From assembly GCA_965211995.1 (NCBI GenBank), contig OZ243040.1:1555363-1619362 (forward strand): a DNA stretch of 64,000 bases, given 5' to 3'. Numbering within the stretch: position 1 is the stretch's first letter; every line of letters begins with the position of its first letter. The notes beneath the pieces are model-generated. The model did no database searches. It was not told the DNA's origin and was given only the letters and a program-made list of their open reading frames with translations. The stretch comes from Candidatus Oxydemutatoraceae bacterium. GTDB lineage: Bacteria; Pseudomonadota; Gammaproteobacteria; Poriferisulfidales; Oxydemutatoraceae. The translations under genes and the position numbers were made by a program. Positions 34,305 through 58,782 of the stretch are shown piece after piece.

Positions 34305-34531
34305 CGCATTCGTAGGCGATGTGTTGTCTGATTTTGTCAAAGATCTGGTTCATGGATTGGCGGCTAATGCCGACGATTTAAGCGACTTTGCAGGCTTCGA
34401 TATCGAGGCAAAACAGGCGCAGGATTTGGCGGAATTTCGCCCCGGAAATTCGTGAACGGATGATATACTTTTTTTCATTTATATAACAATGTGTTATGCG
34501 CATTTTAGTATACCTTAAGTTGTCTTGAACC
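34305..34531 (-). mobile_element. IS1595-family remnant (left end only: terminal inverted repeat plus ~60 codons of the transposase N-terminus)
   Basis: ~85% identical to 55540-55763, including the inverted repeat 'ttaagttgtcttgaacc' and the 'MKNKY...' start region. Confidence 0.6.
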
Positions 34532-34578
34532 TATTTAAATGTAGCACTAGTTGCTTAGGTGATGTATCATGACGATAC

Positions 34579-34860
34579 ATGGATGAGCAGGGGGGAATTC
34601 GATGTTTGCCTATCGAAAAGGCCGAAGAAATAATCCGTGCTTATGCGGCGTACAAAAATCGAGATTCTCTTGAATTGAGTTATTCAGAACACGCGTTGGA
34701 GCGCGCAAAAGAAAGAGGTATTTCTAATTCTGATGTCTTCTATATCCTTGCTCATGGCTTCATAAATGAGGAACCACAGGAATCAAGCAGACTAGGATAT
34801 TGCAAGTACAAATATGCAGTAAATCGCCTAACTCAGGCAACCGAGAAATATGTGCGGTAG
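34579..34860 (+). CDS. DUF4258-like small toxin candidate
   Basis: 'SEHALERAKERGISNSDVFYILAHG' resembles the DUF4258 core; 93 aa; followed by an HTH gene. Confidence 0.45.
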   Translation: MDEQGGIRCLPIEKAEEIIRAYAAYKNRDSLELSYSEHALERAKERGISNSDVFYILAHGFINEEPQESSRLGYCKYKYAVNRLTQATEKYVR

Positions 34861-34923
34861 TGATTCCTGATCCCCGTAAGCCAGCCATCAAAATCGTTAC
34901 ACTCATGTGGAAGGATTTATAAA

Positions 34924-35379
34924 ATGACTCCCGAAATAGTACGCCATCACTACACCGAGTGTGGGTTGCCTAATGTATGGATTCAAGGTCTGCGCATGGA
35001 AGACGACGCCGGGGAAAAAGTGATCAGAATCCCGAATATAGGAAGCCTGCATAAGTTGATCTCAAAGACGATCGTAACCTCAAAAGGCACGCTGACCGGG
35101 CCGGAGTTGCGCTACCTGCGCACCGAGATGGGATTGACTCAAACGCAACTGGGCGAGTTGGTTCATCGCGAGCGCCTGACCGTCTCGCGCTGGGAGCGCG
35201 GGGAAACCACTTTGGAGGGCGCCACCGAGGCGTATATCCGCATACTGGCGTCCAGCAAACTGGGGCTGGAACAGGTCGATCCGGCAGAACTCAGCTGCTG
35301 GTGCAGGTTGACGCCCGACAGTAAAAAACCAATCCACATAGACGCAACGGATCCTGAAAACTACCGCCTCGCCGCTTGA
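34924..35379 (+). CDS. XRE-family HTH protein (antitoxin candidate)
   Basis: 'LTGPELRYLRTEMGLTQTQLGELVHRERLTVSRWERGE' helix-turn-helix. Confidence 0.6.
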   Translation: MTPEIVRHHYTECGLPNVWIQGLRMEDDAGEKVIRIPNIGSLHKLISKTIVTSKGTLTGPELRYLRTEMGLTQTQLGELVHRERLTVSRWERGETTLEGATEAYIRILASSKLGLEQVDPAELSCWCRLTPDSKKPIHIDATDPENYRLAA

Positions 35380-35449
35380 TCGCGGCCGCTGCGGGGCGTT
35401 GGCGGCGGACTGTCCCGCCGGAATAAACCGCGGCTTCGCTATTCCCCGC

Positions 35450-35680
35450 TCAGTCGGCTTTTGCCTTAGAGAGATTCTCTTTTTCCCACTGACGGGCGAT
35501 TTTTAGAGTGGTCCGTTCACCCACCTGCACGATGTGTCCCTTGCCCCATCCCCGCTTGCTCTTATGCTCCATCTCGCGCCGGTCTATGTCATGGGTAATG
35601 CCCACGTGGACAATTCTGTTGCCTTTCTTGAAATAGTACCTATAGGCGGTTCTATACGTCGGCATCGTTCTCATCCTCAA
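35450..35680 (-). CDS. small GIY-YIG-like protein, copy 1
   Basis: 'YRYYFKKGNRIVHVGIT.DIDRREMEH' matches the GIY-(x10)-YIG...R..EH pattern. Confidence 0.5.
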   Translation of the reverse strand: MRMRTMPTYRTAYRYYFKKGNRIVHVGITHDIDRREMEHKSKRGWGKGHIVQVGERTTLKIARQWEKENLSKAKAD

Positions 35681-35827
35681 AAGAGTTAATCAATGAGCGA
35701 GTAACACTCGCCCGCTAATTTAAGACGGACACTAAAAATTATCCACTTTGCGACACAATCGCAGTTTATGCGGGACACCTGCGGCAGGTTGTTCCACCGG
35801 AATAAGCCGTAACTGTTCTAGCCCCCG

Positions 35828-36058
35828 CTAGTCGGGGTGTGCCTTAGAGAGATTCTCTTTTTTCCACTGACGAGCGATTTTTAGAGTGGTCCGTTCACCC
35901 ACCTGCACGATGTGCCCCTTGCTGCAACCTGGCTGATTCTTATGCTCATATTCGCACTGGTCTATGTCATCAGTGATGCCCACGTGGACAACCTTGTTGC
36001 CTTTCTTAAAATAGTACCTATAGGCGGTTCTATACGTTGGCATCGTTCTCATCCTCAA
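35828..36058 (-). CDS. small GIY-YIG-like protein, copy 2
   Basis: 85% identical to copy 1. Confidence 0.5.
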   Translation of the reverse strand: MRMRTMPTYRTAYRYYFKKGNKVVHVGITDDIDQCEYEHKNQPGCSKGHIVQVGERTTLKIARQWKKENLSKAHPD

Positions 36059-36584
36059 AAGAGTTAATCAAAGCATCCGCTATCCGCACAAACTCAACCA
36101 TGTCAAGATGTGCACGGGTTTTCTTACCGTCGTATTCACCCCTTATGGTCATTCTGCCATTATATGCCAACTTAATCTTTATCTTAGATTCCCGCTCTCC
36201 CGGCTTAATCTTTATCTTAGGTTTCCGCAGCGGAACCTTAAAAGGCCAAATTTCTTTAGCATGAATCGCGGTATTACAAGCCCGCCTGAATAACAGCGAT
36301 TCTTTTTCTCCGCCTGGAAAATCGGCCCAGTATTCTCCGCAGTCTTGTCTGCCGATGTCTCTTCGATCCTGCAGATCCAACAAACTGCGCGATGCCGCCG
36401 ACACCCACAGCATCAGCCTTCTTACTTCGTTTTCGTATAGAGTTTGCGTCCAATCAACCACGTTTTTTACTTTAGCCACTTCTTTATCGGCTAACAGCAG
36501 ACTCATCAAAAAGTACAAGTCCCTGCGTAAAACCAGCATGTCAACGATGGGAACATCTATTACCGTACCAGACTTATCCTGCAT
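36030..36584 (-). CDS. hypothetical protein (184 aa), low GC
   Basis: ATG at 36584; only this low-GC portion of the 357-aa ORF is plausible; the upstream extension is antisense to folD. Confidence 0.4.
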   Translation of the reverse strand: MQDKSGTVIDVPIVDMLVLRRDLYFLMSLLLADKEVAKVKNVVDWTQTLYENEVRRLMLWVSAASRSLLDLQDRRDIGRQDCGEYWADFPGGEKESLLFRRACNTAIHAKEIWPFKVPLRKPKIKIKPGERESKIKIKLAYNGRMTIRGEYDGKKTRAHLDMVEFVRIADALINSFEDENDANV

Positions 36585-36631
36585 TTTAATTATGTGAATG
36601 ACTTCCGCCCAAGCACCCCCCCCACCGCCGG

Positions 36632-37507
36632 TCAGTCTTTCACCACTCCCTGCATTCTCGCCGCCGTCAGCGTGTTTTCGAGCAGGCAGGCGACGGTGAC
36701 CGGGCCGGTGCCGCCCGGCATCGGCGTGATGCAGCCCGCGACCGCCGACACTTCCTCGAACGCCACGTCGCCGCGTATTCCCTCCGGCGTGTGCGTGACG
36801 CCGACGTCGAGCACCGCGGCGCCGGGTTTGACGCAGTCGGCGGTGATCAGCCCGGGCGCGCCGGTGGCGGCGACCAGAATATCGGCCGTGCGGCAGGTCT
36901 CGCTCAGCGCCGGCGTGCGCGAGTGGCACAGCGTAGGCGTTACATCCAACCCCTTGCGCGCCATCAACAACACCTGCGGCAGTCCGACCAGGTACGAGCG
37001 TCCGACAATGACCGCACGCCGGCCCGAGGTCGGGATCTCGTAGTGTTCGAGTATGCGCATCACGCCGAGCGGCGTGCACGGCACGAGTCCGGGTTCGCCG
37101 CACACCAGCGCGCCGAGGTTGGCGCGGGTCAGTCCGTCCACGTCTTTCGCCGTCGGCAGAAGTTCTATCGCGGCGCGGGTATCAAGCCCCTCGGGCAGCG
37201 GCAGTTGCAGCAGGATGCCCTGCACCGCCGCGTCGTTCGCAAGTTCGGTGAGTTTTTGCCCGAGTTGCGCCTGGGTGGTGCCGGCCGGCATTTCGACCAG
37301 CAGCGGGTTGAGTCCGGCGGCGGCGGCGCGCTTGAGTTTCAGGTTGACGTAGAGTTTGCCCGGCGCGTTTTCGCCGACCAGCACGGTCGCGAGCGTGATC
37401 GGCGGGCTGCCCGCCTGCTCGATCTGCGCGGCGACGCGCGCCTGGATCGCGTCGGCGACCGCCTTGCCGTCAAGGATCTGCGCGCCCTGCGAGGCCGGAG
37501 CCGTCAT
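36632..37507 (-). CDS. folD: bifunctional methylenetetrahydrofolate dehydrogenase/cyclohydrolase
   Basis: 291 aa, classic FolD sequence ('ILDGKAVA...', 'VGRS..VG.P'). Confidence 0.9.
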   Translation of the reverse strand: MTAPASQGAQILDGKAVADAIQARVAAQIEQAGSPPITLATVLVGENAPGKLYVNLKLKRAAAAGLNPLLVEMPAGTTQAQLGQKLTELANDAAVQGILLQLPLPEGLDTRAAIELLPTAKDVDGLTRANLGALVCGEPGLVPCTPLGVMRILEHYEIPTSGRRAVIVGRSYLVGLPQVLLMARKGLDVTPTLCHSRTPALSETCRTADILVAATGAPGLITADCVKPGAAVLDVGVTHTPEGIRGDVAFEEVSAVAGCITPMPGGTGPVTVACLLENTLTAARMQGVVKD

Positions 37508-37526
37508 TGTCAGTTCGGGCGGCGCC

Positions 37527-38456: not shown

Positions 38457-39085
38457 TTCCTTCCCTTGCCGGTGTAAACGTCTTTTTCGGTGATGACCTT
38501 GTCCATGAAAACGTCGTGCGGCCCGACCAGGATCTCGTCGAACAGTTGCGCCTCGTAGCAGAGCGCGACCAGCGGGCAGTCGGGGCGGGCTTTCTCGAGC
38601 AGGCGGTCGTAATAACCCTGACCGTTGCCCATGCGCCCGCCGCGGCGGTCGAAGCCGACGCCGGGCACCATCACGAGATCAAGGCTTTCAGGCGCGACCT
38701 CCTTGTCCGGGTCGCCCCAGCGCGCGCGCGGCGGCTCGAGAATTTTCCACTTGCCGACCACCAGTTCGTCAAAGTTCTCAAGGTGCCACAGCCCCAGTTT
38801 GTTGTCGCCTTTCTCGTCCACCGTGCAGTAGGGGACGATGATCTTCTTGCCGGAGGCTTCGATCTCCTGCTTTAATTGCGGCTGGGTGCGGGTCTCCGAA
38901 CGGCAGTCTATGTACCACATCGCAACCCCGGCGCTTTGGTATTCGGGCAGTTGGGTGAACTTCCCGCAAATGTCCGCGCTGATCTCGTCCTTGTTCTCCT
39001 GTGCGGCGCGCGCGTCGTACGCCTGGCGGCGCATCTTGTTTTTTCTCTCCATCAACGCTTCGAGTTCTTGCGGCGTCAGTGACAT
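38453..39085 (-). CDS. 5-formyltetrahydrofolate cyclo-ligase family protein
   Basis: 210 aa; 'GVGFDRRGGRMGNGQGYYDR' is the 5-FCL signature. Confidence 0.7.
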   Translation of the reverse strand: MSLTPQELEALMERKNKMRRQAYDARAAQENKDEISADICGKFTQLPEYQSAGVAMWYIDCRSETRTQPQLKQEIEASGKKIIVPYCTVDEKGDNKLGLWHLENFDELVVGKWKILEPPRARWGDPDKEVAPESLDLVMVPGVGFDRRGGRMGNGQGYYDRLLEKARPDCPLVALCYEAQLFDEILVGPHDVFMDKVITEKDVYTGKGRN

Positions 39086-40906: not shown

Positions 40907-41021
40907 TGGATTCGATGCCTCGTCATGCCCGGCAACCCTTTGCTTTTGCGGAATAGTTGCTATTCTACTGTAAGCGGCCGGGCGCACCGGGCGCGGTTTC
41001 AAACCCGGCGAGGAAAACAAC

Positions 41022-47048: not shown

Positions 47049-47089
47049 AGCGTTGACTCCCAATAAAGCGCAAACACCGCGCACCGCAA

Positions 47090-47825
47090 GGACCGCGTCA
47101 CCCGCCCGGCACGTCGCCCCACGGAAGTTTGTGCAACTGCCATTACAGGTGCATGGGCAGGCGCACGGGCAGGCGGTCGGCGAGAATCCAGTCGGCGAAC
47201 GCGGCGGCGTCCCGGCGCTGCCACGCCGGAGAAAACAGTACTTCGCAACGCGCCGCGAGCAGGGGCCGCTTGACTTGACGCTGCGCCCATTCGTAGTCGT
47301 CGCGGTCGCAAATCACGAACTTAACCTGGTCGCCGGCACGCAACGGGCGCGTCACCTGCCCGGCACGTCGCCCCACAGAAGTTTGTGCAACTGCCATTAC
47401 AGGCGCATGGGCAGGCCGGTCGGCGAGCGCGGCGGCGTCCTGACGCTGCCACGCCGGAGAAAACAGCACTTCGCAACGCGCCGCGAGCAGGTGTCGCTTA
47501 ACTTGACGCTTCGCCCATTCGTAGTCGTCGCGGTCGCAAATCACGAACTTAACCTGGTCGCCGGCACGCAACGGGCGCGTCACCTGCCCGGCACGTCGCC
47601 CCACAGAAGTTTGTGCAACTGCAATTGCAGACGCACGGGCAGGTGGTCGGCGAGAATCCAGTCGGCGAGCGCGGCGGCGTCCTGGCGCTGCCACGCCGGA
47701 GAAAACAGCACTTCGCAACGCGCCGCGAGCAGGTGCCGCTTAACTTGACGCTTCGCCCATTCGTAGTCGTCGCGGTCGCAAATCACGAACTTAACCTGGT
47801 CGCCGGCACGCAGGTGCTCGACGTT
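47090..47825. repeat. tandem triplication (~230-255 bp unit) of the queE 3' end, filling the queE-queC intergenic space
   Basis: Marker 'gcgtcacc.gcccggcacgtcgccccac.gaagtttgtgcaactgc' at 47092, 47349 and 47577. Confidence 0.85.
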
Positions 47826-48266
47826 TGAATAAAGGTTGCGCTCACATTCGCCCGATGCGGGGGTTTTTAAATCCATGACCCGCTCGACGCGCGCATCTAC
47901 TGCCGAAATATCGTGCGCGCCGCCGGTTTCGAGCGAAACCGCATAGCCCGCGTCGCACAGGCGGGTCAACAAGTCGAGGCTGCGCGGCTGCGCGAGCGGC
48001 TCGCCGCCGGTGACGGTCACGCGCCGCGGCGCGTACGCCGCAACCTGCGACAAGATCTCGGCGAGGCTCATCCCGCGCCCGCCGCTAAAGGCGTATGCAG
48101 TGTCGCAATAGTCGCAGCGCAGCGGGCAACCGGTCAGGCGCACGAATACGGTGGGGAGGCCCGCGTGCGTGGATTCGCCCTGCAGCGAATAAAAAATCTC
48201 GGTGATCTTGACTTGTATTTCTCGCACAGGGGACGCGATGACCGCGCCGTCGGCCACGGCGCTCAT
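47580..48266 (-). CDS. queE: 7-carboxy-7-deazaguanine synthase (radical SAM)
   Basis: 'CPLRCDYCDT' radical-SAM cluster, 'IFYSLQGE' start region. Confidence 0.85.
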   Translation of the reverse strand: MSAVADGAVIASPVREIQVKITEIFYSLQGESTHAGLPTVFVRLTGCPLRCDYCDTAYAFSGGRGMSLAEILSQVAAYAPRRVTVTGGEPLAQPRSLDLLTRLCDAGYAVSLETGGAHDISAVDARVERVMDLKTPASGECERNLYSNVEHLRAGDQVKFVICDRDDYEWAKRQVKRHLLAARCEVLFSPAWQRQDAAALADWILADHLPVRLQLQLHKLLWGDVPGR

Positions 48267-49432
48267 CGGCGCGGCTTTTGATCAATGAGATCAAGCCTGC
48301 GCGCCGCCAACTCGCGGACGCGCTCGTTGCGCGAGTCGGCCAACTCTTCGAGCAGGCGCCGCGCCGCCGTCAGATCGTCGCGCCCGTGATAGATATAGGC
48401 GAGTTTGAGCCGCGCGTCGTCGGCACGGTCCACGTTGGGGAAACGCTTGACGTATTGCTCGAAATAGCGTGCGGCCTGTTTAAACCGCTTCTCGGTGTAA
48501 TAGGACTCGGCGATCCAGTAGCGCGCTTTCGGCTCGTAGGTGCTGTCGGGGTAGGCATCGAGAAACCGCTGCAACGCCGCACGCAGACCGTCGTACTGGC
48601 TTTCGTCGAGATACGCGAGTGCGTCGAGATACGCCTCGCGCTCCTCGGCGCTGCCGCGCGCACGGCGACCGGCCAGTGCAAAACGCGGCTCTTCAGGCGG
48701 CGGTGTGCGTGCACGCGGCGCCTCGACGGTCTCCGCCTCTTGCTCCCCGGCGCCCGGCTGTGCCTCGGCGGTCGGCGTCCCGGCCGCTACCTGCGCTTCG
48801 CCGGACGATGCCTCGGCCAGCCCTTGCCCTTCGACGGGCGGTGCTTCGGCAGTTCCCCTTGCTTGCTCCCCGGCGGTTGGCTGTGCCCCAGCGGACGGCG
48901 TCCCGGCCGCTACCCGCGCTTCGCCGGACGGTGCCTCGGCCAGCCCTTGCCCTTCGCCGGGCGGTGCTTCGGCAGTCCCCCTTGCTTGCTCCCCGGCGGT
49001 TGGCTGTGCCCCAGCGGACGGCGTCCCGGTCGCTACCCGCGCTTCGCCGGACGATGCCTCGGCCAGCCCTTGCCCTTCGCCGGGCGGTGCTTCGGCAGTC
49101 CCCCTTGCTTGCTCCCCGGCGCCCGGCTGTGCCTCGGCGGTCGGCGTCCCGGCCGCTACCTGCGCTTCGCCGGACAATGCCTCGGCCGGCCCCCGCCCCT
49201 TAACGGACGACGGCGTAGAAAGCACGGCGGCGGCCGTGCGCACGCGCGGCTCTTTGCTGTCGATGCCGAGTTGGTCGAGCAGCGCTTCGAGGCGGTGGCG
49301 CAGGATCTCGTTTTCGTTTCTGATGCTGCTGACTTCGACGCGCAGTTTCCGCACCTGCTCAAGCAACTCGACGATCAGCGCGCCGTCGCCTTCCTGCGCC
49401 GCGGCGGGCGCAAGCAGCGCGCACAGCAACAT
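48263..49432 (-). CDS. cpoB: Tol-Pal system protein CpoB/YbgF (coiled coil plus TPR), with a long repetitive linker
   Basis: Signal peptide, N-terminal coiled coil, 4 x ~40-aa Ala/Gly/Glu-rich repeats, C-terminal TPR 'YEPKARYWIAESYY'. Confidence 0.75.
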   Translation of the reverse strand: MLLCALLAPAAAQEGDGALIVELLEQVRKLRVEVSSIRNENEILRHRLEALLDQLGIDSKEPRVRTAAAVLSTPSSVKGRGPAEALSGEAQVAAGTPTAEAQPGAGEQARGTAEAPPGEGQGLAEASSGEARVATGTPSAGAQPTAGEQARGTAEAPPGEGQGLAEAPSGEARVAAGTPSAGAQPTAGEQARGTAEAPPVEGQGLAEASSGEAQVAAGTPTAEAQPGAGEQEAETVEAPRARTPPPEEPRFALAGRRARGSAEEREAYLDALAYLDESQYDGLRAALQRFLDAYPDSTYEPKARYWIAESYYTEKRFKQAARYFEQYVKRFPNVDRADDARLKLAYIYHGRDDLTAARRLLEELADSRNERVRELAARRLDLIDQKPRR

Positions 49433-49455: not shown

Positions 49456-50775
49456 TCACCAGGTAAAAGGCGACCACGCAGCGCCGCGCACGTCCGACGC
49501 GGACAACGGAATCAGTTTGCCGAAGACGCCGTCGGTAGTCATCAACCCGAACGCGCTCTTGCCGCCGCGATCGGTGATGTAGCCGAGCAACTGACCGTTG
49601 GCGGTGAAACGCGGGCCTTCGGCGCCGGGGTTGAACACCAACTCCGACTCGTCGCCGTCCTTGCCGGTGAAGTCCTTGATCACGATCACGAAGCCCTTGC
49701 TGCGCCGGCTCAGAAAAGCGATCTGGTCGCCGCGCGGGGAAATGCTGGCGTCGGAGTTGTAAGTGCCGCGGAAAGTGATGCGGCGCGGCGCGGCGCCGTC
49801 GCTGTCAACCCGGTACAACTGCGGGCTGCCGCTGCGGTCGGAGGTGAAGACCAGCGTGCCGTCGGGCGCCCAGGTCGGCTCGGTGTCTATAAAAACGTTG
49901 TCGGTTACGCGCAGAATACGCTTGGACGCGAGTTCGATGACGTAAACGTCGGGGCTGCCGCCCGCCGAACTGACGTAGGCGAGGCGCTCGCCGTCGCCCG
50001 ACCAACTCGGCAAACTCGCCGGCGCGGTGCCCCCGCCGAGCATCTCACGCGCGCCGGTCGCAACCGTTTGCACCACGATCTCGGGCTGGCCGTTTTCATA
50101 CGACACGTAGGCGATCCGCTTGCGGTCGGGCGACCACGTCGGCGACATCAATTGGTGCGGAGAACTGTGAATCGCGTGGGCGTTGCGGCCGTCGGCGTCG
50201 CTGACGTACAAAGTGCTCCTGTGGCGGCGCCAACTGTAATGCTCGGCGCTGATGAACGCGATGCGGGTGCTGAAAATACCGGGGATGTCGGTGAGTTCCT
50301 TGTAGATCAGGTCGCTGATCTGATGCGCGACGCGATCCACCGTGCCGCCGGAGTCAATGACGAATTCCTTCAGGCGCTTGCCGCGCACCGCGTCGTGCAA
50401 TTCAAAGTGGACCTGCCCGTCTTGCGCGATCGCGCCGATGATGACTTTTTCAACGCCGTGGATGAGCCACACGCCGTAGTCGAGATCGCTGCCGAGCAGC
50501 GGCGACTCCGATACGCCGGCGTCAATGAGCAAGAACAGGCCGCTGTAGGCGAGATCGTCGGCGACGATGCGGTGGTAGTTGCGGTCGAGCCCCTCGGGTT
50601 CACCGCGAAACGGCGACACCGCGATGGGCACGCCGCCTTCGACGCCTTCGGTGACCTCGATTTTGAGTTCGGCGGGCGCCGGCAACGCCGACACCAGCCC
50701 GTATAACAAGGCACACGGCAGAACGCATCGCCGCGCGGCTTCAGTACTCCTGGCGAAAAGTAATTTCAACTTCAT
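49456..50775 (-). CDS. tolB: Tol-Pal system beta-propeller protein TolB
   Basis: 439 aa with a typical TolB sequence. Confidence 0.9.
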   Translation of the reverse strand: MKLKLLFARSTEAARRCVLPCALLYGLVSALPAPAELKIEVTEGVEGGVPIAVSPFRGEPEGLDRNYHRIVADDLAYSGLFLLIDAGVSESPLLGSDLDYGVWLIHGVEKVIIGAIAQDGQVHFELHDAVRGKRLKEFVIDSGGTVDRVAHQISDLIYKELTDIPGIFSTRIAFISAEHYSWRRHRSTLYVSDADGRNAHAIHSSPHQLMSPTWSPDRKRIAYVSYENGQPEIVVQTVATGAREMLGGGTAPASLPSWSGDGERLAYVSSAGGSPDVYVIELASKRILRVTDNVFIDTEPTWAPDGTLVFTSDRSGSPQLYRVDSDGAAPRRITFRGTYNSDASISPRGDQIAFLSRRSKGFVIVIKDFTGKDGDESELVFNPGAEGPRFTANGQLLGYITDRGGKSAFGLMTTDGVFGKLIPLSASDVRGAAWSPFTW

Positions 50776-51943
50776 GGTCGAACACGTCCCACGAGGGCGG
50801 AGACGGTAACGGGTTTGATTTCCATACTGCGTCTTCCACCGAGAGCATGTAAAAACGATCCCCCTTGCAACTGATCACTTGTACGCTCTCAATGTTACCA
50901 CTGCGATCCTGCCGCAACTTAACGACGCAATCGCCGCCTTTGACGCTCGCGGGCGGGCGCGTCCAGTGGGTTTCGATGCTGCGGCGAATACTCTGAGCGT
51001 ATTCTTTGGTCAAGGCCGTGATCTTCGCGCGCCTGATGCGTGCCTGTTCTTCGGCCTCGGCCTGGCGCCGCGCTTCCTCGGCCAGGCGCTTTTGCTCCTC
51101 CTCCAACTTGCGCTGCGCTTCCTCGGCCAGGCGTTGCTTCTCCTCCTCGGCCTGGCGCCGCGCTTCCTCGGCGAGACGCTGCTTCTCCTCCTCCAACTTG
51201 CGCTGCGCTTCCTCGGCCAGGCGCTTTTGCTCCTCCTCCAACTTGTGCTGCGCTTCCTCGGCGAGGCGCTGCTTCTCCTCCTCCAACTTGCGCTGCGCTT
51301 CCTCGGCCAGGCGTTGCTGTTCTTCCCCCAACTTGTGCTGCGCTTCCTCGGTGAAACGCTTTTGTTCTTCCTCGGCCTTGCGCCGCGCTTCTTCGGCCAG
51401 GCGCTTTTGTTCTCCCTCAAGTTTGTGCTGCGCTTCCTCGGCGAGACGCTTTTGTTCTCCCTCGAGTTTGTGCTGCGCTTCCTCGGCGAGGCGCTTTTGT
51501 TCTCCCTCGAGTTTACGCTGCGCTTCCTCGGCTAAACGCTTTTGCTCCTCCTCGGCCTCGGTGCGCGCCTGCCTGGACTGCGCTTCCTGTTCGAGCCGGG
51601 CTTGTTCAAGGCGCTTTTGCTCTCCTTCGGCTTTGAGCCGCGCCTGTTCGAGACGCTTTTTCTCCTCTTCGGCCGCGCGCCGCGCTTCCTCCTGCGCACG
51701 CCGCCGCGCCTCATCCGCTTCACGCTGCCTGCGCTCCCTGTCGCGCTTTTGCTGCAACATTTGCTCGATTTCCTGGGGGCTTACCGCGGTCGCCTCGATG
51801 ACCGGGCGCGGGGCGGACACGGGTTTCGACACCGATACCAGCGACGGGCCGATACTGAATGCCGCGAGAGCGACCAGAGCGAGATGGATCAGAATCGAAG
51901 CGATCAGCGACTTTTGCTGCCGCCGGCGGCCACGCTTTTTCAT
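50741..51943 (-). CDS. tolA: TolA
   Basis: N-terminal TM helix, long 'EEAQRKLEEEQKRLAEEA' helical repeats, C-terminal TolA domain. Confidence 0.8.
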   Translation of the reverse strand: MKKRGRRRQQKSLIASILIHLALVALAAFSIGPSLVSVSKPVSAPRPVIEATAVSPQEIEQMLQQKRDRERRQREADEARRRAQEEARRAAEEEKKRLEQARLKAEGEQKRLEQARLEQEAQSRQARTEAEEEQKRLAEEAQRKLEGEQKRLAEEAQHKLEGEQKRLAEEAQHKLEGEQKRLAEEARRKAEEEQKRFTEEAQHKLGEEQQRLAEEAQRKLEEEKQRLAEEAQHKLEEEQKRLAEEAQRKLEEEKQRLAEEARRQAEEEKQRLAEEAQRKLEEEQKRLAEEARRQAEAEEQARIRRAKITALTKEYAQSIRRSIETHWTRPPASVKGGDCVVKLRQDRSGNIESVQVISCKGDRFYMLSVEDAVWKSNPLPSPPSWDVFDHEVEITFRQEY

Positions 51944-52374
51944 TGCGGCGCCGCGTCCTCCGGCGGTTCGGTGATCAAACCGATGTTTTCAGCGCCGGCG
52001 GTTTGCAGAAGCACCATTGCGGCGACGACGTTGCCGTACGACGTGCCGCGGTCGCCGCGCACGTAGGCGACGCCGCTCTGGTCGGGCAGCAGCACGTACA
52101 ACTGGCGCAGCACGAAGTCGGGCGACAGCGGCTGGTTGGCGGCTTCGCCCTTGTTGAGCAGGATCTGGCCGCGGCGGTTGACCGTGACGATCAGCGGGTC
52201 GGGCGCTTCGCTGCCTTCGAGCGGGCGCGCCTGCGCCTGCGGCAACTCGATCTTGATCCCCTGCTGGATCAGCGGCACCGTCACCATGAAGATCACCAAC
52301 AGCACCAGCATCACGTCTATATAAGGCACGATGTTGATCTCGGCCATAAGTTTGCGGTCGCGGTAAACCGACAT
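51940..52374 (-). CDS. tolR: TolR (ExbD family)
   Basis: 144 aa; 'NIVPYIDVMLVLLVIFMV'. Confidence 0.9.
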   Translation of the reverse strand: MSVYRDRKLMAEINIVPYIDVMLVLLVIFMVTVPLIQQGIKIELPQAQARPLEGSEAPDPLIVTVNRRGQILLNKGEAANQPLSPDFVLRQLYVLLPDQSGVAYVRGDRGTSYGNVVAAMVLLQTAGAENIGLITEPPEDAAPQ

Positions 52375-52384
52375 CAGCCGACCT

Positions 52385-53080
52385 TTACTCCACGCTCGCG
52401 GCGGCGCGCCCCGGCACCTGCTTGCTGAGGAGGGTGGTGAATTCCTCGAGGAAATTGTCGTAGCGCGAGACCAGCCGCTCGACGCGGTCGCGGAAGCGGT
52501 TGTAGGCGATGACCGCGGGGATCGCCGCGAACAGCCCCATCGCAGTCGCGATCAACGCCTCGGCGATGCCGGGCGCGACCAGCGACAGCGTCGCGTACTG
52601 CACGTCCCGCAACGCGAGGAACGCGTCCATAATGCCCCACACCGTGCCGAACAAGCCGACGTAGGGCGCGGTCGAACCGACCGTCGCGAGAAAGTTCAAC
52701 TGGCTTTCCATGTCTTCTATCTCGCGCGACAACGCGACCTTCATCACCTTCACCGAAGTCAAGGAAAGCATCTCCATGGATACCGTGCGCTCCTTGTGCA
52801 GGCGCATGTATTCCTTGAACCCCTCGCAAAAGATCGCCGCCATGCCCGAGTCGCGCCCTTCCTTTTGCACCTCGCCGTACAACTGCGACAGATCCGACCC
52901 CGACCAGAAGCGCTCCTCGAAACCGTCCGCGGCCACTTTCATGCTTTTCAGTTCGCGCCATTTATTCAAAATGAAAGACCAACTGATCACCGAGGCCAGC
53001 ACCAGGATGAGCATAACCAGTTGCACCACGAAAGTGGCGTCAAGAATCAGGCTCAAAAAATCTAGATCCGCTTGTATCAA
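52385..53080 (-). CDS. tolQ: TolQ (MotA/ExbB family)
   Basis: 231 aa with a typical TolQ sequence. Confidence 0.9.
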   Translation of the reverse strand: MIQADLDFLSLILDATFVVQLVMLILVLASVISWSFILNKWRELKSMKVAADGFEERFWSGSDLSQLYGEVQKEGRDSGMAAIFCEGFKEYMRLHKERTVSMEMLSLTSVKVMKVALSREIEDMESQLNFLATVGSTAPYVGLFGTVWGIMDAFLALRDVQYATLSLVAPGIAEALIATAMGLFAAIPAVIAYNRFRDRVERLVSRYDNFLEEFTTLLSKQVPGRAAASVE

Positions 53081-54112
53081 ACTCTCAACGTCTCCTGGGT
53101 GAGCGGCCGCTGCGCCGCAAAAGTGCTGCTGCTATAACGGCCCATTTTCCTACAAACCGCAGCGCAGGTCATCCCCGCGTAATCAAAGAAGCGCCGTCTC
53201 CGCAAAAAGTGCGATATCCCGCATGACGCTGCGGCGGCTTTCAGTCCGAAACTGCCTCAATTCAAAAGCATGAGGCACTTCTCCGAATCGGAGGAGACAC
53301 CTTGCAAACCCGCCGCATTCGGCCACCGCCTCAGGGGATTTTACCGCGTTGGCACCTTCCGGCTCGAAGTGCGGCAAAAATAAGGGAGACAAGTGCCCTG
53401 TTTGTCCCCCCGCCTGTTACCAACCGGAGGACTGAATCGGCGCCTGCAGGCACCAATCCTTTCCGCACCGTACCACGGTTCAAGTGTTGCTCGACGCCGG
53501 GTATTCCCAGGCCTGCATCGCCAATCCATCAACTGCCGCCGCTCCCCCCCGCTCCGGGAGATCAAGCGCAACCGCACCGCCGCCGCCATAAGTTCGGAAA
53601 CGGGCCGAAGCCGGAACATCGCGCCGGTCGCGTGGCGCGCAAAGAGCGGTTATGCGGACGGCGCCCTCCACGGTCGCCCCGCGATCGTGGGCCAACGGTC
53701 GCCTCTCGGCGACCGGGAAATAAAAGGATGCGATTTTGTGGGAGAACCTCCGGCCCTGTGGCTGGATTGACCGTCCAAAACATACAAAATCACGCCCTGT
53801 GCAAGTTGCCGCGGTGAACCACTGCTGTTGTGCATCAAATGGGTGAAATGGCGGGACGGGCAGCGCGAATCAGGCATACCCTAACTGTTAGAAGTTAACT
53901 GGTTGTTAGTAATGATTCCCATGCACCATGGTATCTGGAAGATTTAATTTACTAACAGCACAAACATCGAAAAACCCAACAACCTCATTTGGCTTAATTG
54001 CTACTCCACCAAAGCCATCATATCCCCCGCCACCACACCACCACCCGCTCTCCGACCACCGCGGGGACTAGAGGTGGTTTAGGCCCTGCTGAAGTCGGGC
54101 AACCCCTGACGG

Positions 54113-54937
54113 TCATTGCTTTTCCATGACCGCAACCGAGTAAAAATTAAGCACCGCCATAGGCTCCTCCGCTCCGGGGGAGTATTCTTCACGAAGATTT
54201 TTCATCAGCCGGTCTTCGACCACTTTCAGCGGGGTTTTTTGTTCCAGCACCTTCAGGTCGTCAAAGCCGGTGACCCAGGTGGCGGACATTTTATCGAAGA
54301 ATTCGGCGGCTTTTGTTATTGAATCAAAGCCGCTGGTGCGCATGACCATGCACTTGTCCAGGTAGTCAAAGGTGACCGCGAAGCGGGCGAGGTTGTCGCA
54401 GAAATCATTCAGCAGGCGAACGACTGTTTCTTCGGGGAGATACATCGTGTTGCCCTCCCAGGTAATCAGCGTCGGCGCGTCCGGGTCAAGGCCCTGCGCG
54501 GCCAGTTTGGCGAACAAATCTTCGTCCGCGTAGTTGCACGGCACGAAGTTTGCGCGGTAAGGGATGTTGTTTTTCTCTATGACCTGCTGTTTGAAGGCCA
54601 GCACCGCGCTTTGATCGACGTCAAAGAAAACCACGTCGTCGTCTTGATAACCACCGGCGCGCATGTCAAAGCCGCTGCCCAGCATGATTACCTGGCGAAC
54701 GCCGCCGGTGACCGCATCGGCGGTTTTGTCGCCGAAGAATTTTATCCGGTAGCGAATCATTTCACGCCCTTCCGGCAGCACCTTTTCGAAGTCGAGCGCT
54801 TTTTGTATCACCTGTTCATTGACAAAAAACTCCGAATACCCGTCCTCAAAGAGCGGTGCATCCGCGTCCTTTTCCAGCGCACGGTAGGCGGCGATGATGA
54901 ATGCGGTCGCACCGATTTCGTTGATAATGTCTTTCAT
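54113..54937 (-). CDS. class I SAM-dependent methyltransferase (leucine carboxyl/TcmP-like O-methyltransferase family)
   Basis: 'VIMLGSGFDMRA' and 'WEGNTMYL' are LCM-family motifs; intermediate GC; next to the IS element. Confidence 0.65.
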   Translation of the reverse strand: MKDIINEIGATAFIIAAYRALEKDADAPLFEDGYSEFFVNEQVIQKALDFEKVLPEGREMIRYRIKFFGDKTADAVTGGVRQVIMLGSGFDMRAGGYQDDDVVFFDVDQSAVLAFKQQVIEKNNIPYRANFVPCNYADEDLFAKLAAQGLDPDAPTLITWEGNTMYLPEETVVRLLNDFCDNLARFAVTFDYLDKCMVMRTSGFDSITKAAEFFDKMSATWVTGFDDLKVLEQKTPLKVVEDRLMKNLREEYSPGAEEPMAVLNFYSVAVMEKQ

Positions 54938-55029
54938 GTGGTTACCTCTTGTTTATTTGGCAACGTTGCCGCTCAAATACTCCAAAGTCTCTTTCACTCT
55001 GTTCACCGCTATGCCGAACAATTTGATCT

Positions 55030-55763
55030 GGGTTCAAGATACTTTAAGCGGTCTATTTCGTATAGATTTCAGCAGGTATTGATACATATTTTCGTGGCGC
55101 ATATTGAAGCGAAACTCACACTCTTTCAAGTGGCAATAAAACCTCTGTATGTGAATACCCCGAAAGCGGGCAAGGCGCACCTTGCAAAGCCCCCGGAAGT
55201 TCCCGATGCCGTTGATATGGCGGCTACCTTGCGCGAACTCGTTGTGGCTGTGTCTGATGCGGTAATGTTGCTTATAGCCGAGGTCGGCGAGACCGTCTCA
55301 GGTTCTAAATCCATCGCTATAAACCGCCATCTGCTTACTGGCCTTGCCCTTGTTAATCGGCAGGATTTCAGCCATAGAGCAGTTTTTAACCACTTGGCCT
55401 TGCCGCCACGCTTGAACATGCCGAACACCGGCGTTTTTCCGGCAGCACCGCGCCCGCGCCTGCCGCGTACCCGGCGGGGCCCGAAGTATCTTTCATCCAA
55501 CTCAACCGCCCCCTCGCCAAAGGGGCTGGCGCGCTCGCATTCATGGGCGATGTGTTGTCTGATATGGTGGAACAAGCGGTTTGCCTCAGGGTGGTTGATG
55601 CCTGCGATTTGGGCGACTTTGCAGGCCTCGATATCCAGGCAAAACAGGCGCAAAGTCTGCCGGAATTTAGCCGCGGAAATTCGTGAACGAAGGATATACT
55701 TGTTTTTCATTTATGGGACAATAAGTTACATTCATTTTAGTATATCTTAAAGTGTCTTGAACC
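55030..55763 (-). mobile_element. IS1595-family element, internally deleted (~734 bp), with 17-bp terminal inverted repeats
   Basis: Inverted repeats 'ggttcaagatactttaa' at 55030 and 'ttaaagtgtcttgaacc' at 55747; encodes only the transposase N-terminus. Confidence 0.7.
55126..55710 (-). pseudogene. IS1595-family transposase, truncated or frameshifted
   Basis: 'MKNKYILRSRISAAKFRQTLRLFCLDIEACKVAQIAGINHPEANRLFHHIRQHIAHEC' matches the IS1595 (ISXO2-like) transposase N-terminus; the remainder of the ORF is out of frame. Confidence 0.65.
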
Positions 55764-55832
55764 TAAATTAATTCATAGGCAGAAATAAAATTCACTAGTA
55801 TCATTGCAATTATTATCAAACGAGTAACCAAA

Positions 55833-57842
55833 ATGCCAGCACTAGGATTGGGCCGCGAGAGACCCGCGGACTACATAAATATCAGCAAGACAATCGCGGA
55901 TACATATCCGTCAGGGTTGGCGCATGGACTCCAAAAAGATGCTATTCAGAACTCTGTGGATGCAAGGAGTAGTAAATCGTTGCCGATAAAAGTTGAATTT
56001 AATGTTGTGCGGAACGCTAATGGCGTGTTTTTGACAATAACTGATTCAAACACGACCGGGCTCACTGGTGATGTCATACACGATATTGAAGATTATCGGC
56101 ATTTACAACGAGATGATCATTGGGCGCGGTTTGAGTCTTTTGCTTTCACGAAAGTAGATGCTGATGCCCTTGGGGCTAGAGGGCAGGGTAAATTCATCTT
56201 TCTTTATGCATCCCAAAATCACAAAATGTTTTACGACACCCTAAGGAAAGACAGTATCTATAGACTCGGCGCAACACAAGCTACCGATATAGGATGTCCA
56301 ATTTTCCCCGGCAGTGAAGAAAAACCGTGGGAAAGTCATATTGCCCGGGAAAGATTAAGCGAACACTGCGGCCTGGTGCCTCTACGAGAGATTGGGACAA
56401 GAGTTATCATTTGTGCTCCTAAGCAAGAGGTTTTGGACGCAATTGACAGTGGGGAAATGGAGAGAGCCATCCAGGAAACATGGTTTCGATTAATACAAAA
56501 GAAACAATTGGAGGTAACTTTACATACAAAGGGGCAGATCAAAACAATAGAGTTACCAAATATCTATACGCTTCCCCAAAATGACTCAAGCACTCATAAA
56601 GTTTGGATTTACGGTCAAGATTTTAACGAAAGGGAAATCAAACTCCTTTCCGGCGAAAATTACAAAATCAAGAACTTTCACGTCGTATACCTAAAAAAAG
56701 AAACGGTGCCGGAAGATTTGCAGGGAATAACTTTGGTGCAAAACGGCATGAAAATCACGTCTCTGCCTATGGCAATGGCCCCGACAGATATCAAGGAGAA
56801 AATTACCGGCTACATAGAATTTGGCCGTGACCTTGACAGAGAATTGCGAAAGGGAAAAAACCAACTCCCGAATCACTATGATTTGAAGTGGAGATCAGCT
56901 CTTCCTCGTAGCATTAAAGCATTTATAACAAACCAACTAGATGCTTTTGGAACATCTAAGCTTGGTTTAGGTGAAGATCCTCGTCAGCGAAAAAATCGAC
57001 GGAGAAACGATGCCGAAGATTGGGCAATGCGACAATTACAACAATACGCAAGGGACTTGAATTTACTTGGCCCCCACAAACCCAGACCGGGGTCGGACCC
57101 GCCGCGTCCCCCTATTCCACCGCCACATAAAGATAGAGGTTTGTCTTTCAAGGATTTTTTGATTCCTAACGAGGGGTTCCGCGTTAATTGGGGGCAACAA
57201 GTTACGTTTTCCCTATGGGGCTTCAACAAAACCTCAGAGGCTGTAGAATATAAAATATCGTTGAGGGTGCTCCATGCCGACTCGGAAATTGTCAAATTGC
57301 TTGATAGTGAATCCCTTACACTTGATGCCAATTCAAGAAAACAAATCAGCGATTCTTCTTTCACCCTTGCCATTGAAAAGCCTCAATATGAAAACGTCGG
57401 CGAGTATAGAGTTAAGGCTACCTTGATCAATGCCGAGACGGGTGAAGAGGTGGATACGCTCACGCGAAAATTCTGGGTGGAAAGCAATCCGCCCATGCGT
57501 CAGCCTTTTGAGTTGAAAGCATCCCTATTTCCACCGGATTTAACGCTTGCTTGGTCAGCAGATGTTAATAATATGATGTTACTCTACAATACCAATCATC
57601 CGGAATATCGTTCTGCGGAAAAAAACGAGGACACACAAACGGATTATTTGCTAAAAATTTGCTTGGAAGGCGCCCTACATTTTGTGTTGGCGAAAACGTT
57701 CGAGGATGCCCCGGATTATGCTCCGTTGGACACAAACACCATTATGCAGAGTGACAAAGACATAATTCCGGAAAAGACTTACGCTGAGGTTATGGCATAC
57801 ATATCCAAAATACGCTGGAAAATTTACGAAGATGGGAGCTAA
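55833..57842 (+). CDS. GHKL-superfamily ATPase (MutL/MORC/Hsp90-like Bergerat fold) with a ~480-aa C-terminal region of unknown function
   Basis: N-box 'LQKDAIQNSVDA', G1 'ITDSNTTGLTGD', G2 'LGARGQGKFIFL'; low GC; 669 aa. Confidence 0.7.
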   Translation: MPALGLGRERPADYINISKTIADTYPSGLAHGLQKDAIQNSVDARSSKSLPIKVEFNVVRNANGVFLTITDSNTTGLTGDVIHDIEDYRHLQRDDHWARFESFAFTKVDADALGARGQGKFIFLYASQNHKMFYDTLRKDSIYRLGATQATDIGCPIFPGSEEKPWESHIARERLSEHCGLVPLREIGTRVIICAPKQEVLDAIDSGEMERAIQETWFRLIQKKQLEVTLHTKGQIKTIELPNIYTLPQNDSSTHKVWIYGQDFNEREIKLLSGENYKIKNFHVVYLKKETVPEDLQGITLVQNGMKITSLPMAMAPTDIKEKITGYIEFGRDLDRELRKGKNQLPNHYDLKWRSALPRSIKAFITNQLDAFGTSKLGLGEDPRQRKNRRRNDAEDWAMRQLQQYARDLNLLGPHKPRPGSDPPRPPIPPPHKDRGLSFKDFLIPNEGFRVNWGQQVTFSLWGFNKTSEAVEYKISLRVLHADSEIVKLLDSESLTLDANSRKQISDSSFTLAIEKPQYENVGEYRVKATLINAETGEEVDTLTRKFWVESNPPMRQPFELKASLFPPDLTLAWSADVNNMMLLYNTNHPEYRSAEKNEDTQTDYLLKICLEGALHFVLAKTFEDAPDYAPLDTNTIMQSDKDIIPEKTYAEVMAYISKIRWKIYEDGS

Positions 57843-57844
57843 TC

Positions 57845-58537
57845 ATGGCAGTTATACTCCGTGAACAAGTCGCATTGAGGGGCAAAACGAGTGAAATTAA
57901 AACATTTCACCCTTCCGGGGCATTGTCCAAAACTGACCGGGAGCGTGCAGAAAATCTGGACGCTTTTCTTGAAAGGGAAATACCCAAAGTAGTCGAACGC
58001 ATCATAAATCAGGTGACTTTGGCCAAAAACGACACGTCTTTGTTTAGATGGTATCTCTTCGGGAAGGAATTGAGAAAAATTACCGACAATGAACTGGTTT
58101 TATCACTGGATGTGAAAAGTGGAATTATCTGGGAAGCCGTATGGCAACATTTGCCGAATTCTTTTAAACCGCATGGTACCAGAACGGAAAAGAATCTGTT
58201 TTCAAAAAAACGGGTCCAAGGTAGGGACCATCTCTCTATATGCTACACGCTAGGCCAGTACGACGAGAAAGATATCCTGTGGATTCGTCGCTGGGATGAT
58301 TGGTGTCAAATCTATTACAGAACGGGAATTCTTGAAGACAAACGAGTATTTGAATCCCTTAGGGAAGAAATCCAGAAACTGAACGAGTATCCGAAAAAGG
58401 ATATTTTCAGGGGAATTGTTTCTAATATTTCCCAATGCTTTCCGCAGAAGGCTGGCAAAAAAGTACACACCAGCGTTCTGGCCAAGACAGTGATTAGAAA
58501 GCGCGTTCACGATAGTGCAATGCAAGCCTATAAATAA
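57845..58537 (+). CDS. hypothetical protein (230 aa), translationally coupled to the GHKL ATPase gene
   Basis: ATG 3 nt after the upstream stop; low GC; no recognisable motif. Confidence 0.5.
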   Translation: MAVILREQVALRGKTSEIKTFHPSGALSKTDRERAENLDAFLEREIPKVVERIINQVTLAKNDTSLFRWYLFGKELRKITDNELVLSLDVKSGIIWEAVWQHLPNSFKPHGTRTEKNLFSKKRVQGRDHLSICYTLGQYDEKDILWIRRWDDWCQIYYRTGILEDKRVFESLREEIQKLNEYPKKDIFRGIVSNISQCFPQKAGKKVHTSVLAKTVIRKRVHDSAMQAYK

Positions 58538-58578
58538 ATCCTGCAAATTCGAGATATTAATATTGGCCTGCCAGGCTC

Positions 58579-58782
58579 GGTTCAAGATACTTTAAGCAGT
58601 CTATTTCGTATAGATTTCAGCAGGTATTGATACATATTTTCGTGACGCATATTGAAGCAAAACTCACATTCTTTCAAGTGGCAATAAAACCTCTGTATGT
58701 GAATACCCCGAAAGCGGGCAAGGCGCACCTTGCAAAGCCCCCGGAAGTTCCCGAGGCCGTTGATATGGCGGCTGCCTTGGAT
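58579..58782 (-). mobile_element. IS1595-family remnant (right end only)
   Basis: ~93% identical to 55030-55235, including the inverted repeat 'ggttcaagatactttaa'. Confidence 0.65.

Follow-up and report, generated by a model that had tools for sequence, protein, structure and literature searches.

Dead remnants of IS1016-subgroup insertion sequences, two of them flanking a foreign GHKL two-gene cassette

The 64-kb window (the whole stretch of DNA analysed here) carries three dead remnants of insertion sequences (ISs) of the IS1016 subgroup of the IS1595 family, hereafter copies A, B and C, two of which (B and C) bound a foreign cassette encoding a predicted GHKL ATPase and a small partner protein. 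We see about an even chance that the B-cargo-C block derives from a pseudo-compound transposon or a translocatable-unit insertion, similar to ISApl4/Tn7560, of which it would be a relic, now immobile and with C cut by a later rearrangement. The remnants themselves are an ordinary kind of mobile-element fossil and involve no new mechanism.

A pattern search recovered exactly four IS termini GGTTCAAGAYAMYTTAAG in the window, at 34514-34531(-), 55031-55048(+), 55746-55763(-) and 58579-58596(+), where 0.13 are expected by chance and four were reached in 0/100 shuffles. They correspond to three elements on the same strand, as the initial annotation had it and at essentially the coordinates it gave; the transposase lies on the minus strand, so that 'left' and 'right' denote IRL and IRR as the element itself is read. 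No further IS fragment was found in the window by tblastn and blastn, and none of the three copies encodes an intact transposase. In its intact form this IS is ~740 bp long, with 18-bp terminal inverted repeats GGTTCAAGAYACTTTAAG, one 227-aa DDE transposase and 8-bp AT-rich target duplications. Membership in the IS1595 family, proposed from the outset, is well grounded: the repaired ORF of B scored 126.6 bits on the NCBIfam IS1595 model NF033547 (cut-off 75, model positions 1-215/215) and was 80% and 78% identical, at 100% coverage, to intact 227-aa PF12762 proteins, and even the unrepaired N-terminal ORF gave 58 bits on NF033547 and 28.4 bits on PF12762. A and C also matched intact transposases by tblastn (E=5e-24 and E=1e-30, respectively).

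The similarity among the copies had been read as ~85-93%, which proved wrong. B and C are 97.0% identical over 201 bp (blastn, E=2e-94) with six differences, and A and B 79.4% identical over 233 bp (E=4e-52), a distance equal to that separating B from the IS of another organism (L001, 78%). At this level of identity, B and C are recent paralogues of one IS, and A, being only ~79% identical to B, represents another IS within the subgroup; the kinship suggested for the three copies holds for the subgroup, and not for A as the same IS as B and C.

Copy B (55031..55763, minus strand) is almost complete: it measures 733 bp, where the intact L001 element has 740 bp, with IRR at 55031-55048, IRL at 55746-55763 and a transposase pseudogene running from 55710 to 55034 that aligns colinearly with 227-aa transposases along their entire (100%) length. 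Its inverted repeats (GGTTCAAGATACTTTAAG and GGTTCAAGACACTTTAAG) match at 17/18 positions, and the same termini bound L001. Both repeats are present as first described, and the 'internal deletion' reported with them is merely a 7-bp one, not a large one. This deletion relative to L001 (55396..55399, ~55397) causes a frameshift and takes out part of the 'VYTQ' codons. Two further inactivating lesions affect the same minus-strand gene: a TGA nonsense codon (TAC>TGA, 55298..55300) in place of a Tyr (Y138, TAC) found in all 119 intact homologues, and E170G (codon GGG, 55202..55204), which replaces the DDE glutamate of the HINGIENF..K motif, a Glu in 119/119 of them. The signature blocks ELDERYFG, VYSD, HINGIGNFRGLCK and KECEFRFN are all present and colinear in B, with D72, D133 and K177 conserved, and correspond to the signature of the IS1016 subgroup, E-DESYFG(n)VY(T/S)D(n)HINGIENFW..K(n)KECEFRFN (DDE-K) (PMC12561309). 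C carries the same E170G lesion (GGG, 58750..58752, minus strand), so that a catalytic-signature Glu that is 100% conserved among the intact homologues is Gly in both copies. Judged by this signature, the B/C lineage falls in the IS1016 subgroup, and these copies appear to have lost the catalytic residue.

No 8-bp target duplication (TSD) was found at B, where the flanks TTGATCTG and TAAATTAA agree at 3/8 positions; the flank on the IRL side, TAAATTAA, is a typical target of this IS. Perfect 8-bp AT-rich TSDs border 12/14 two-ended relatives of this IS, and that of the intact 740-bp L001 element is TAGATCAA. The missing TSD of B therefore points to a secondary event and does not exclude family membership.

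Copy C (58579..58782, minus strand) is a 201-bp stump that retains the IRR terminus (58579-58596) and the last ~65 transposase codons, 97% identical to positions 55031-55231 of B; its outer IRL end is missing, and its homology stops at 58779 +/- 3 bp (58779-58782). Its inner flank, CCAGGCTC, is GC-rich, which is unusual whichever insertion model is assumed. To the right of C, the first core gene that is conserved encodes a pteridine reductase (PTR, 58826..59581, minus strand), which anchored a comparison of the right side of the block with three related genomes. These relatives (L122, L124 and L127) share the order YkuD-TPR-PolyA_pol-BacA-PTR-folK-folB-L28-L33 (rpmB-rpmG). The window retains it from YkuD through PTR and then enters C, and folK, folB and rpmBG were not found anywhere in its 64 kb. 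Synteny with the three relatives thus breaks exactly at the truncated end of C, which bears out the initial suggestion that the fragments mark a past rearrangement.

Copy A (34305..34531, minus strand) comprises the IRL terminus (34514-34531) and the first ~59 transposase codons, is truncated at ~34305, and shows a 1-bp deletion right after the ATG together with an in-frame CAA>TAA stop. Within the subgroup it is distinct from B and C and older, and lies in a separate low-GC defence island, where its flank TATTTAAA is a typical target. The description of the three elements as decaying holds.

The cargo region between B and C (55764-58578) contains two genes on the plus strand. Gene 1 (55833..57842, 669 aa) encodes an N-terminal GHKL ATPase with a transducer-like module, followed by an Ig-like beta-sandwich and a C-terminal helical domain; gene 2 (57845..58537, 230 aa) has no family match and is always paired with gene 1 in other genomes. 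Gene 1 belongs to no Pfam or NCBIfam family and has a distant match to PADLOC PDC-M33A, a profile matched weakly by 20/36 of its homologues. Its AF2 model (pLDDT 86.7) retrieved Topo VI-B, TRAP1/Hsp90 and the SMCHD1 ATPase as top Foldseek matches in the PDB (E=1e-9 to 1e-8, probability 1.0). Among the 36 homologues, Q39/N40 are invariant, and D36, D71..T74.G76L77.G79 and G114..G117.G119K120 nearly so. From the model and these motifs, the protein is predicted to be a GHKL ATPase with a Bergerat fold, an N-box and glycine-rich ATP-lid motifs. The cassette has a GC content of 0.43, against 0.63-0.66 in core DNA; because 43% departs so far from the ~65% of the host, the cargo is foreign, in agreement with the initial view of it as foreign and GHKL-type. 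The pair is widespread (>250 homologues, a GHKL ATPase with a 225-230-aa partner) and hops between housekeeping loci. Five other genomic contexts contain it, and in none of them does an IS1595 element lie within 6 kb of the cassette; its neighbours in other genomes include HsdM and GmrSD. Given these IS-free contexts and the AT-rich target preference of the IS, the horizontal delivery by the IS that had been proposed stands as to the foreign cargo, and as to the carrier is plausible, no more.

B and C, as copies of the same IS, are directly oriented and sit close to the cassette, with gaps of 69 bp upstream (from B) and 41 bp downstream (to C). On the left, the neighbour of the block is a gene for an LCM/TIGR00027-type SAM methyltransferase (54113..54937, minus strand, 54% GC), whose start is 93 bp from the IRR tip of B; the tol operon also lies on this side. 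The bounding ISs do not both retain usable outer termini, C having no outer IRL, and TTGATCTG is not found again on the right side of C. No part of the block can transpose now, because C has no outer end and B carries its three lesions. The label 'composite-transposon-like' is consequently sound as to the direct orientation of two copies and otherwise describes a structural resemblance only; for directly oriented copies, 'pseudo-compound' is the better name.

In the ISfinder grouping, elements of the IS1016 subgroup are ~700-745 bp long. Its member ISApl4 measures 712 bp and encodes a 217-aa transposase (PMC12561309). The elements described here resemble it in size class (733-740 bp), in a single DDE transposase (~217-227 aa, within the ~200-230 aa of the subgroup and likewise without an N-terminal zinc-finger extension), in the colinear blocks of the catalytic signature, in short terminal inverted repeats and, in the relatives of the window's elements, in 8-bp AT-rich duplications. 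They differ from IS1016/ISApl4 in their termini, GGTTCAAGAYACTTTAAG (18 bp) rather than GGGGCTGTACTAGA, in a transposase ~10 aa longer, in that all three window copies are defective, the catalytic Glu being replaced by Gly in B and C, and in their hosts, which are uncultured sponge-symbiont-like Gammaproteobacteria rather than Pasteurellaceae or Neisseria. The closest structural parallel is Tn7560, a very recently described pseudo-compound transposon in which two directly oriented ISApl4 copies, without direct repeats of their own, surround sul2-strAB-tet(Y) (PMC12561309). Both arrangements consist of two directly oriented IS1016-type copies around a short foreign cargo, with no individual 8-bp duplications. 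In Tn7560, however, the two ISs are identical, intact and expressed, and transfer was shown (PMC12561309), whereas here a 201-bp stump and a triple-hit pseudogene flank a GHKL two-gene cassette instead of resistance genes, and the block can no longer move. The directly oriented IS-cargo-IS layout also recalls the pseudo-compound transposons and translocatable units of the IS26 family, in which a circular IS-plus-cargo unit can insert beside or into a resident copy without a duplication at each IS. IS26 (IS6/IS26) nevertheless belongs to a different family from IS1595, and the documented replicative/conservative mechanism is its own, not being known from IS1595 elements.

Under the history that we consider most likely, an IS-cargo-IS pseudo-compound transposon or a translocatable-unit insertion, the direct orientation of the copies and the lack of a target duplication at B would both be accounted for. 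The common ancestor of B and C may already have been catalytically dead, or the copies may have been homogenised later. With E170G common to both, the second copy would not have arisen by autonomous transposition, and the dead residue in both bracketing copies points to trans-mobilisation or recombination over self-transposition. It could have been mobilised in trans by a related transposase, or an IS-plus-cargo circle could have recombined homologously into a resident copy. For the former route, a candidate to act in trans on the inverted repeats of B and C is P0001, an intact related 227-aa transposase whose gene seems to lie at another place on the 1.94-Mb contig of the window (1,943,614 bp), to which proteins matching the cargo (P0121, 100%) and PTR (P0261, 100%) were also assigned. 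A later illegitimate chromosomal rearrangement would then have broken C at IS position ~534, and the cut end would have come to lie 43 bp downstream of the pteridine-reductase gene, in place of the ancestral neighbours folK-folB-rpmB-rpmG. Several observations count against this explanation: the outer end of C, where the target duplication that defines such an insertion would lie, is gone, joint movement of IS and cargo is unsupported in the five other cassette contexts, AT-rich target preference alone could place IS copies beside a low-GC cassette, and the inner flank of C is GC-rich. The fuller scenario, in which the block is a fossil IS1016-type pseudo-compound transposon or translocatable unit that shuttled a GHKL two-gene immunity cassette among sponge-symbiont genomes, with an intact paralogue elsewhere in the chromosome acting in trans to mobilise its dead IS copies, is speculative and, in our estimate, improbable.

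We regard it as possible, if doubtful, that the IS was not the carrier, and that copies separately entered the AT-rich flanks of a low-GC cassette already resident, the AT-rich 8-mers that the IS prefers being rare in a 65% GC chromosome, with later recombination or deletion erasing the target duplication of B and truncating C. All 12/12 observed TSDs are indeed AT-rich, the flanks of B (IRL side) and A are typical targets, A likewise sits in a low-GC island, and the cassette occurs five times elsewhere without the IS. Two autonomous insertions of an element already dead by E170G are impossible without help in trans, however, and such insertions also fit poorly with the missing TSD of B, the GC-rich inner flank of C and the two precise hits needed for both copies to land in one orientation, 69 bp and 41 bp away from the cassette.

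A single IS beside the cassette could also have been duplicated together with it, in tandem or by unequal recombination, a deletion then leaving C. This would dispense with a second transposition and with transposase activity altogether, and agrees with the direct orientation and with the 97% identity and common E170G of B and C, but we find it unlikely: at least two extra events are needed, the second cargo copy has left no trace in the window, the six B-C differences imply some age, and neither the missing TSD of B nor the synteny break is explained. That the mismatched B flanks, the break in synteny at C, or both are chimeric joins made at a repeated IS during metagenome assembly seems very improbable to us. 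The 1.94-Mb source contig does appear metagenome-derived, and a crossover inside the repeat would yield an IS with flanks from two loci; yet a misjoin mediated by a repeat does not create a truncation at a non-repeat junction such as that of C, long reads (a long-read assembly is suggested by the contig names of sister assemblies) span 733-bp repeats, and B and C are distinct loci, since six positions differ.

With these assignments, three otherwise unassignable stretches can be annotated as IS fragments, and they mark a real breakpoint, beyond which gene order differs from that of the related genomes. As an arrangement, the block adds a second IS1016-type pseudo-compound case, which is decayed and phylogenetically far from the first; under the fuller scenario above, it would be the second such structure in the IS1595 family and the first with a candidate defence system in place of resistance genes. 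The cargo is the more useful lead: since it hops between housekeeping loci and has restriction-modification and GmrSD genes nearby, a role in phage defence is a reasonable one to propose for it. Its gene 1 product shares the GHKL fold, the N-box QNxxDA and the G-rich boxes with GHKL defence proteins (paraMORC / GHKL-Shedu VcSduA; PADLOC candidate PDC-M33). It differs from these in having no DUF4263 or other nuclease domain, its C-terminal half being an Ig-like sandwich plus helices, and in being obligately paired with its 225-230-aa partner.

With up to three mismatches tolerated, a pattern search of the 64-kb window for the terminal motif GGTTCAAGAYAMYTTAAG returned exactly four sites, at 34514-34531 (minus strand), 55031-55048 (plus), 55746-55763 (minus) and 58579-58596 (plus). 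The chance expectation in shuffled sequence was 0.13, and four sites were reached in none of 100 shuffles; the IS fragments are real and well beyond chance. All three copies have their transposase frame on the minus strand: copy A (34305-34531) keeps the left inverted repeat (IRL) and the N-terminus, copy B (55031-55763) keeps both the IRL and the right inverted repeat (IRR), and copy C (58579 to about 58779) keeps the IRR and the C-terminus. The initial annotation had the coordinates and common orientation of the copies right. Its identities of 85-93% were wrong both ways, with B and C 97% identical over 201-204 bp (repeat finder and blastn, E=2e-94) and A only 79% identical to B over 233 bp (blastn, E=4e-52), a distance that also contradicts the implied equivalence of A with the other two. 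Sensitive blastn and tblastn with intact relatives as queries revealed no fourth IS fragment in the window, and a protein match extending C to 58824, obtained with two distant queries, was discarded as without support at the DNA level.

The longest ORF of B matches the IS1595 profiles (NF033547, 58 bits; PF12762, 28 bits) over their first half only, and the remainder of the transposase runs on in a different frame. After conceptual repair, the 225-aa ORF covered the whole NF033547 model with 126.6 bits (cut-off 75 bits) and was 80% and 78% identical to intact 227-aa PF12762 proteins over 100% of their length. B also has, in order, all blocks (ELDERYFG, VYSD, HINGIGNFRGLCK and KECEFRFN) of the IS1016-subgroup catalytic signature, E-DESYFG(53)VYTD----Y(24)HINGIENFWSQAK(14)LFIKECEFRFN, described with ISApl4 (PMC12561309). 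When GTDB genomes were scanned for this motif, the matches listed included more than 116 loci, many of them in long-read MAGs such as those of Candidatus Spongiihabitans, Poriferihabitaceae and Bdellovibrionales; of the 14 two-ended elements in these loci, 12 had perfect 8-bp duplications, all AT-rich. Their size, the single short DDE transposase, the signature, the short inverted repeats and the AT-rich 8-bp duplications put A, B and C in the IS1016 subgroup, a refinement of the correct earlier assignment to the IS1595 family. Their terminal sequence is unlike that of IS1016 and ISApl4. They are a known type of element and not a new mechanism. B had no blastn match among the PLSDB plasmids.

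Alignment to L001, an intact related IS of 740 bp on an ENA metagenome contig, with a perfect 8-bp duplication (TAGATCAA) on either side, indicated that B, at 733 bp, is missing just 7 bp; the internal deletion previously proposed for B therefore exists, but is as small as a 7-bp frameshift. Two further lesions affect residues that are invariant in 119 intact homologues, namely TAC>TGA at a tyrosine and GAG>GGG at the 100% conserved glutamate of HINGIENF..K. Because B matches the IS1016 signature block by block, the lost residue corresponds to the DDE glutamate. The lesions of A are a 1-bp deletion after the ATG and a CAA>TAA stop. The distance between A and B equals that between B and L001 (78%), which comes from another organism, and A is therefore a different IS of the subgroup and not a copy of the B/C element.

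The IRR end of B (positions 635-733, window 55031-55129, comprising the last ~30 codons and the IRR) is 90-95% identical to most Ca. Spongiihabitans copies (loci L004-L099 of NZ_OZ252047.1), and the IRL-proximal 232 bp only ~75%, which suggests a strong cis or protein constraint on the conserved end, or recombination. In the same genome, elements with the same termini and perfect 8-bp duplications (L006, L009, L011, L041, L054, L055, L060, L078 and L099) span 618 to 1071 bp, a spread implying that mobilisation extends, or formerly extended, both to deletion derivatives and to variants enlarged by additional internal DNA.

In the B-cargo-C block, the plus-strand order is IRR of B, transposase pseudogene, IRL of B, a 69-bp gap, the 669-aa gene (55833-57842), the 230-aa gene (57845-58537), a 41-bp gap, and C, which consists of its IRR plus 201 bp before non-IS DNA begins. 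The cargo has a GC content of 43%, versus 63-66% for core genes. The 8-bp flanks of B, TTGATCTG and TAAATTAA, agree at 3/8 positions, so that B has no target duplication. The Glu>Gly codon is common to B (55202-55204) and C (58750-58752), and as these differ at only 6 positions in 201 bp, it is a lesion of common ancestry. Either the ancestor of B and C had already lost catalysis when it gave rise to a second copy, or the two were homogenised later. The dead glutamate speaks for trans-mobilisation or recombination rather than for autonomous transposition. The intact 227-aa database transposase P0001, 80% identical to repaired B, is a candidate helper. Its contig is given as 1,943,614 bp long, the length also given for the 100% matches to the cargo protein (P0121) and to the pteridine reductase (PTR) beside C (P0261), which would place all three on one contig. 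A single passenger-carrying transporter IS, comparable to ISNwi1+ or ISNha5, was rejected because the cargo lies outside the termini of both elements, between the IRR tip of C and the IRL tip of B. Rfam and tRNA scans of the window gave no matches, and hence no tRNA-type integration site in it, and a promoter and terminator scan of the block performed no better than on shuffles.

Neither cargo protein matched a Pfam or NCBIfam family. The AlphaFold2 model of the 669-aa protein (mean pLDDT 86.7, 36 homologues) had topoisomerase VI-B, TRAP1/Hsp90 and the SMCHD1 ATPase module as its best PDB matches (E=1e-9 to 1e-8), and in the alignment of the 36 homologues Q39-N40 are invariant, D36 is nearly so, and glycine-rich boxes are present, so that the GHKL label already given to this gene holds at the fold level. 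A GHKL and transducer-like module is followed by an Ig-like sandwich and then a helical tail. The cassette is a conserved two-gene unit (669 aa + 225-230 aa) with more than 250 homologues. The PADLOC candidate PDC-M33A was weakly matched by 20 of the 36 homologues (best E 6e-14); the 230-aa partner had no match. Neighbours of the cassette in other genomes include HsdM, IS66 and GmrSD, and VcSduA (PMC12137116) is one of the proven defence proteins with a GHKL domain. That the pair serves in defence is a reasonable guess, and we regard the cassette as a candidate for a defence system not yet characterised, with PDC-M33A as a distant relative. This family-less cassette and the dead catalytic residue common to B and C are the two points worth pursuing.

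Homologues of the PTR gene to the right of C lie on three large contigs (82%, 82% and 76% identity), all of which share the order YkuD-TPR-PolyA_pol-BacA-PTR-folK-folB-rpmB-rpmG. The window keeps YkuD through PTR (63999 down to 58829), and folK, folB, rpmB and rpmG are absent from all of its 64 kb. The truncated internal end of C begins 43 bp past the PTR stop codon, just beyond a small hairpin, and it is there that synteny with the three relatives ends. As core genes also lie left of the block (tolQRAB at 49456-53080 and an LCM-type methyltransferase), this arrangement argues for a chromosomal rearrangement with its breakpoint at the truncation point of C, and not for a simple island insertion; the past rearrangement suggested earlier is in this respect borne out for C. 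The junction lies at IS position ~534, away from a terminus, and is therefore an illegitimate join, neither a transposition product nor the result of IS-IS homologous recombination. On the left side, a metagenome scan with the LCM methyltransferase as query yielded only a 34% relative for the synteny comparison. The gene-less stretch of about 1 kb at 53081-54112, upstream of tolQ at the expected place of ybgC, has a mixed GC content of 49-65% and gave no Pfam match in six-frame scans; it may consist of pseudogene remains close to the rearrangement.

How B, the cargo and C came together can be compared with Tn7560, a pseudo-compound transposon formed by two same-orientation copies of ISApl4, also of the IS1016 subgroup (PMC12561309). 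Its directly oriented pair is a close precedent for B and C, and the missing duplication of B fits as well, since in that genome every ISApl4 copy has its own 8-bp repeats except those belonging to Tn7560 and to one inversion (PMC12561309). The composite transposon of the initial annotation is thus sound as a structural analogy, better termed pseudo-compound; current mobility does not follow, because C has lost its outer IRL end, which leaves the unit immobile now and puts any outer duplication beyond examination. A relic of a pseudo-compound transposon or translocatable unit is the best single account, to which we give an even chance.

Independent insertions of IS beside a resident cassette rank second, as a possible though rather doubtful explanation. 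Five other genomic contexts carry the gene pair (~670 aa + 225-230 aa) with unrelated housekeeping genes on either side (L118, L119, L121, L125 and L126; L120, a second contig from the sample of L119 with the same neighbourhood, is taken together with L119), and the flanks fetched around it there gave no IS1595 DNA or protein signal. An AT-rich target preference would anyway draw IS to low-GC islands of a 65% GC genome, and A also lies in one. Segmental duplication is improbable, and an assembly artefact more improbable still. The window alone can neither prove nor refute the composite-transposon idea. An origin of A and C as halves of one split IS was rejected, since the IRL half (A) lies left and the IRR half (C) right, opposite to the order produced by insertion into one IS; moreover, the halves do not abut (IS positions 1-229 versus 534-740) and their identities to B are unequal (79% versus 97%).

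The low-GC defence island holding A lies at 25-36 kb. Its stretch at 25588-35379 encodes an 8xMP membrane protein, type III R-M res (26269-28950) and mod (30221-32500), separated by a 424-aa coiled-coil ORF, an AAA_14/DUF4143 ATPase (32455-33861, PADLOC PDC-S01) and a DUF4258/MqsA-like toxin-antitoxin pair (34579-35379), 47 bp upstream of which lies the IRL tip of A. The sequence TTCCGAACC to the left of A resembles a degenerate IRR too weakly to be called as one. At 35450-36071, immediately to the right of the toxin-antitoxin genes, two 242-bp direct repeats (88%), each holding a 76-aa minus-strand ORF, look like a tandemly duplicated small gene. A second low-GC islet (12567-14931, 42-50% GC) encodes an Mrr-type restriction endonuclease (12567-13529) and an Nmad3 nucleotide-modification-associated protein (13557-14426).

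Repeats also occur elsewhere in the window. A 193-bp direct repeat (97%) at 60468-60900 lies inside or beside the poly(A) polymerase/CCA-adding enzyme gene, and tblastn found a segment of this protein duplicated (60485-60658 and 60725-61864), which suggests a partial internal duplication of the gene. In the TolA-like gene (50955-51730), a 45-nt (15-aa) unit is repeated in tandem at least 11 times, with strong AT skew, forming a long, charged, repetitive linker. Further long tandem repeats, in high-GC regions at 18247-19263, 47085-47885, 48715-49206, 9790-10244 and 61966-62368 (units of 300, 228, 123, 48/39 and 210 nt, respectively), probably encode repetitive proteins.
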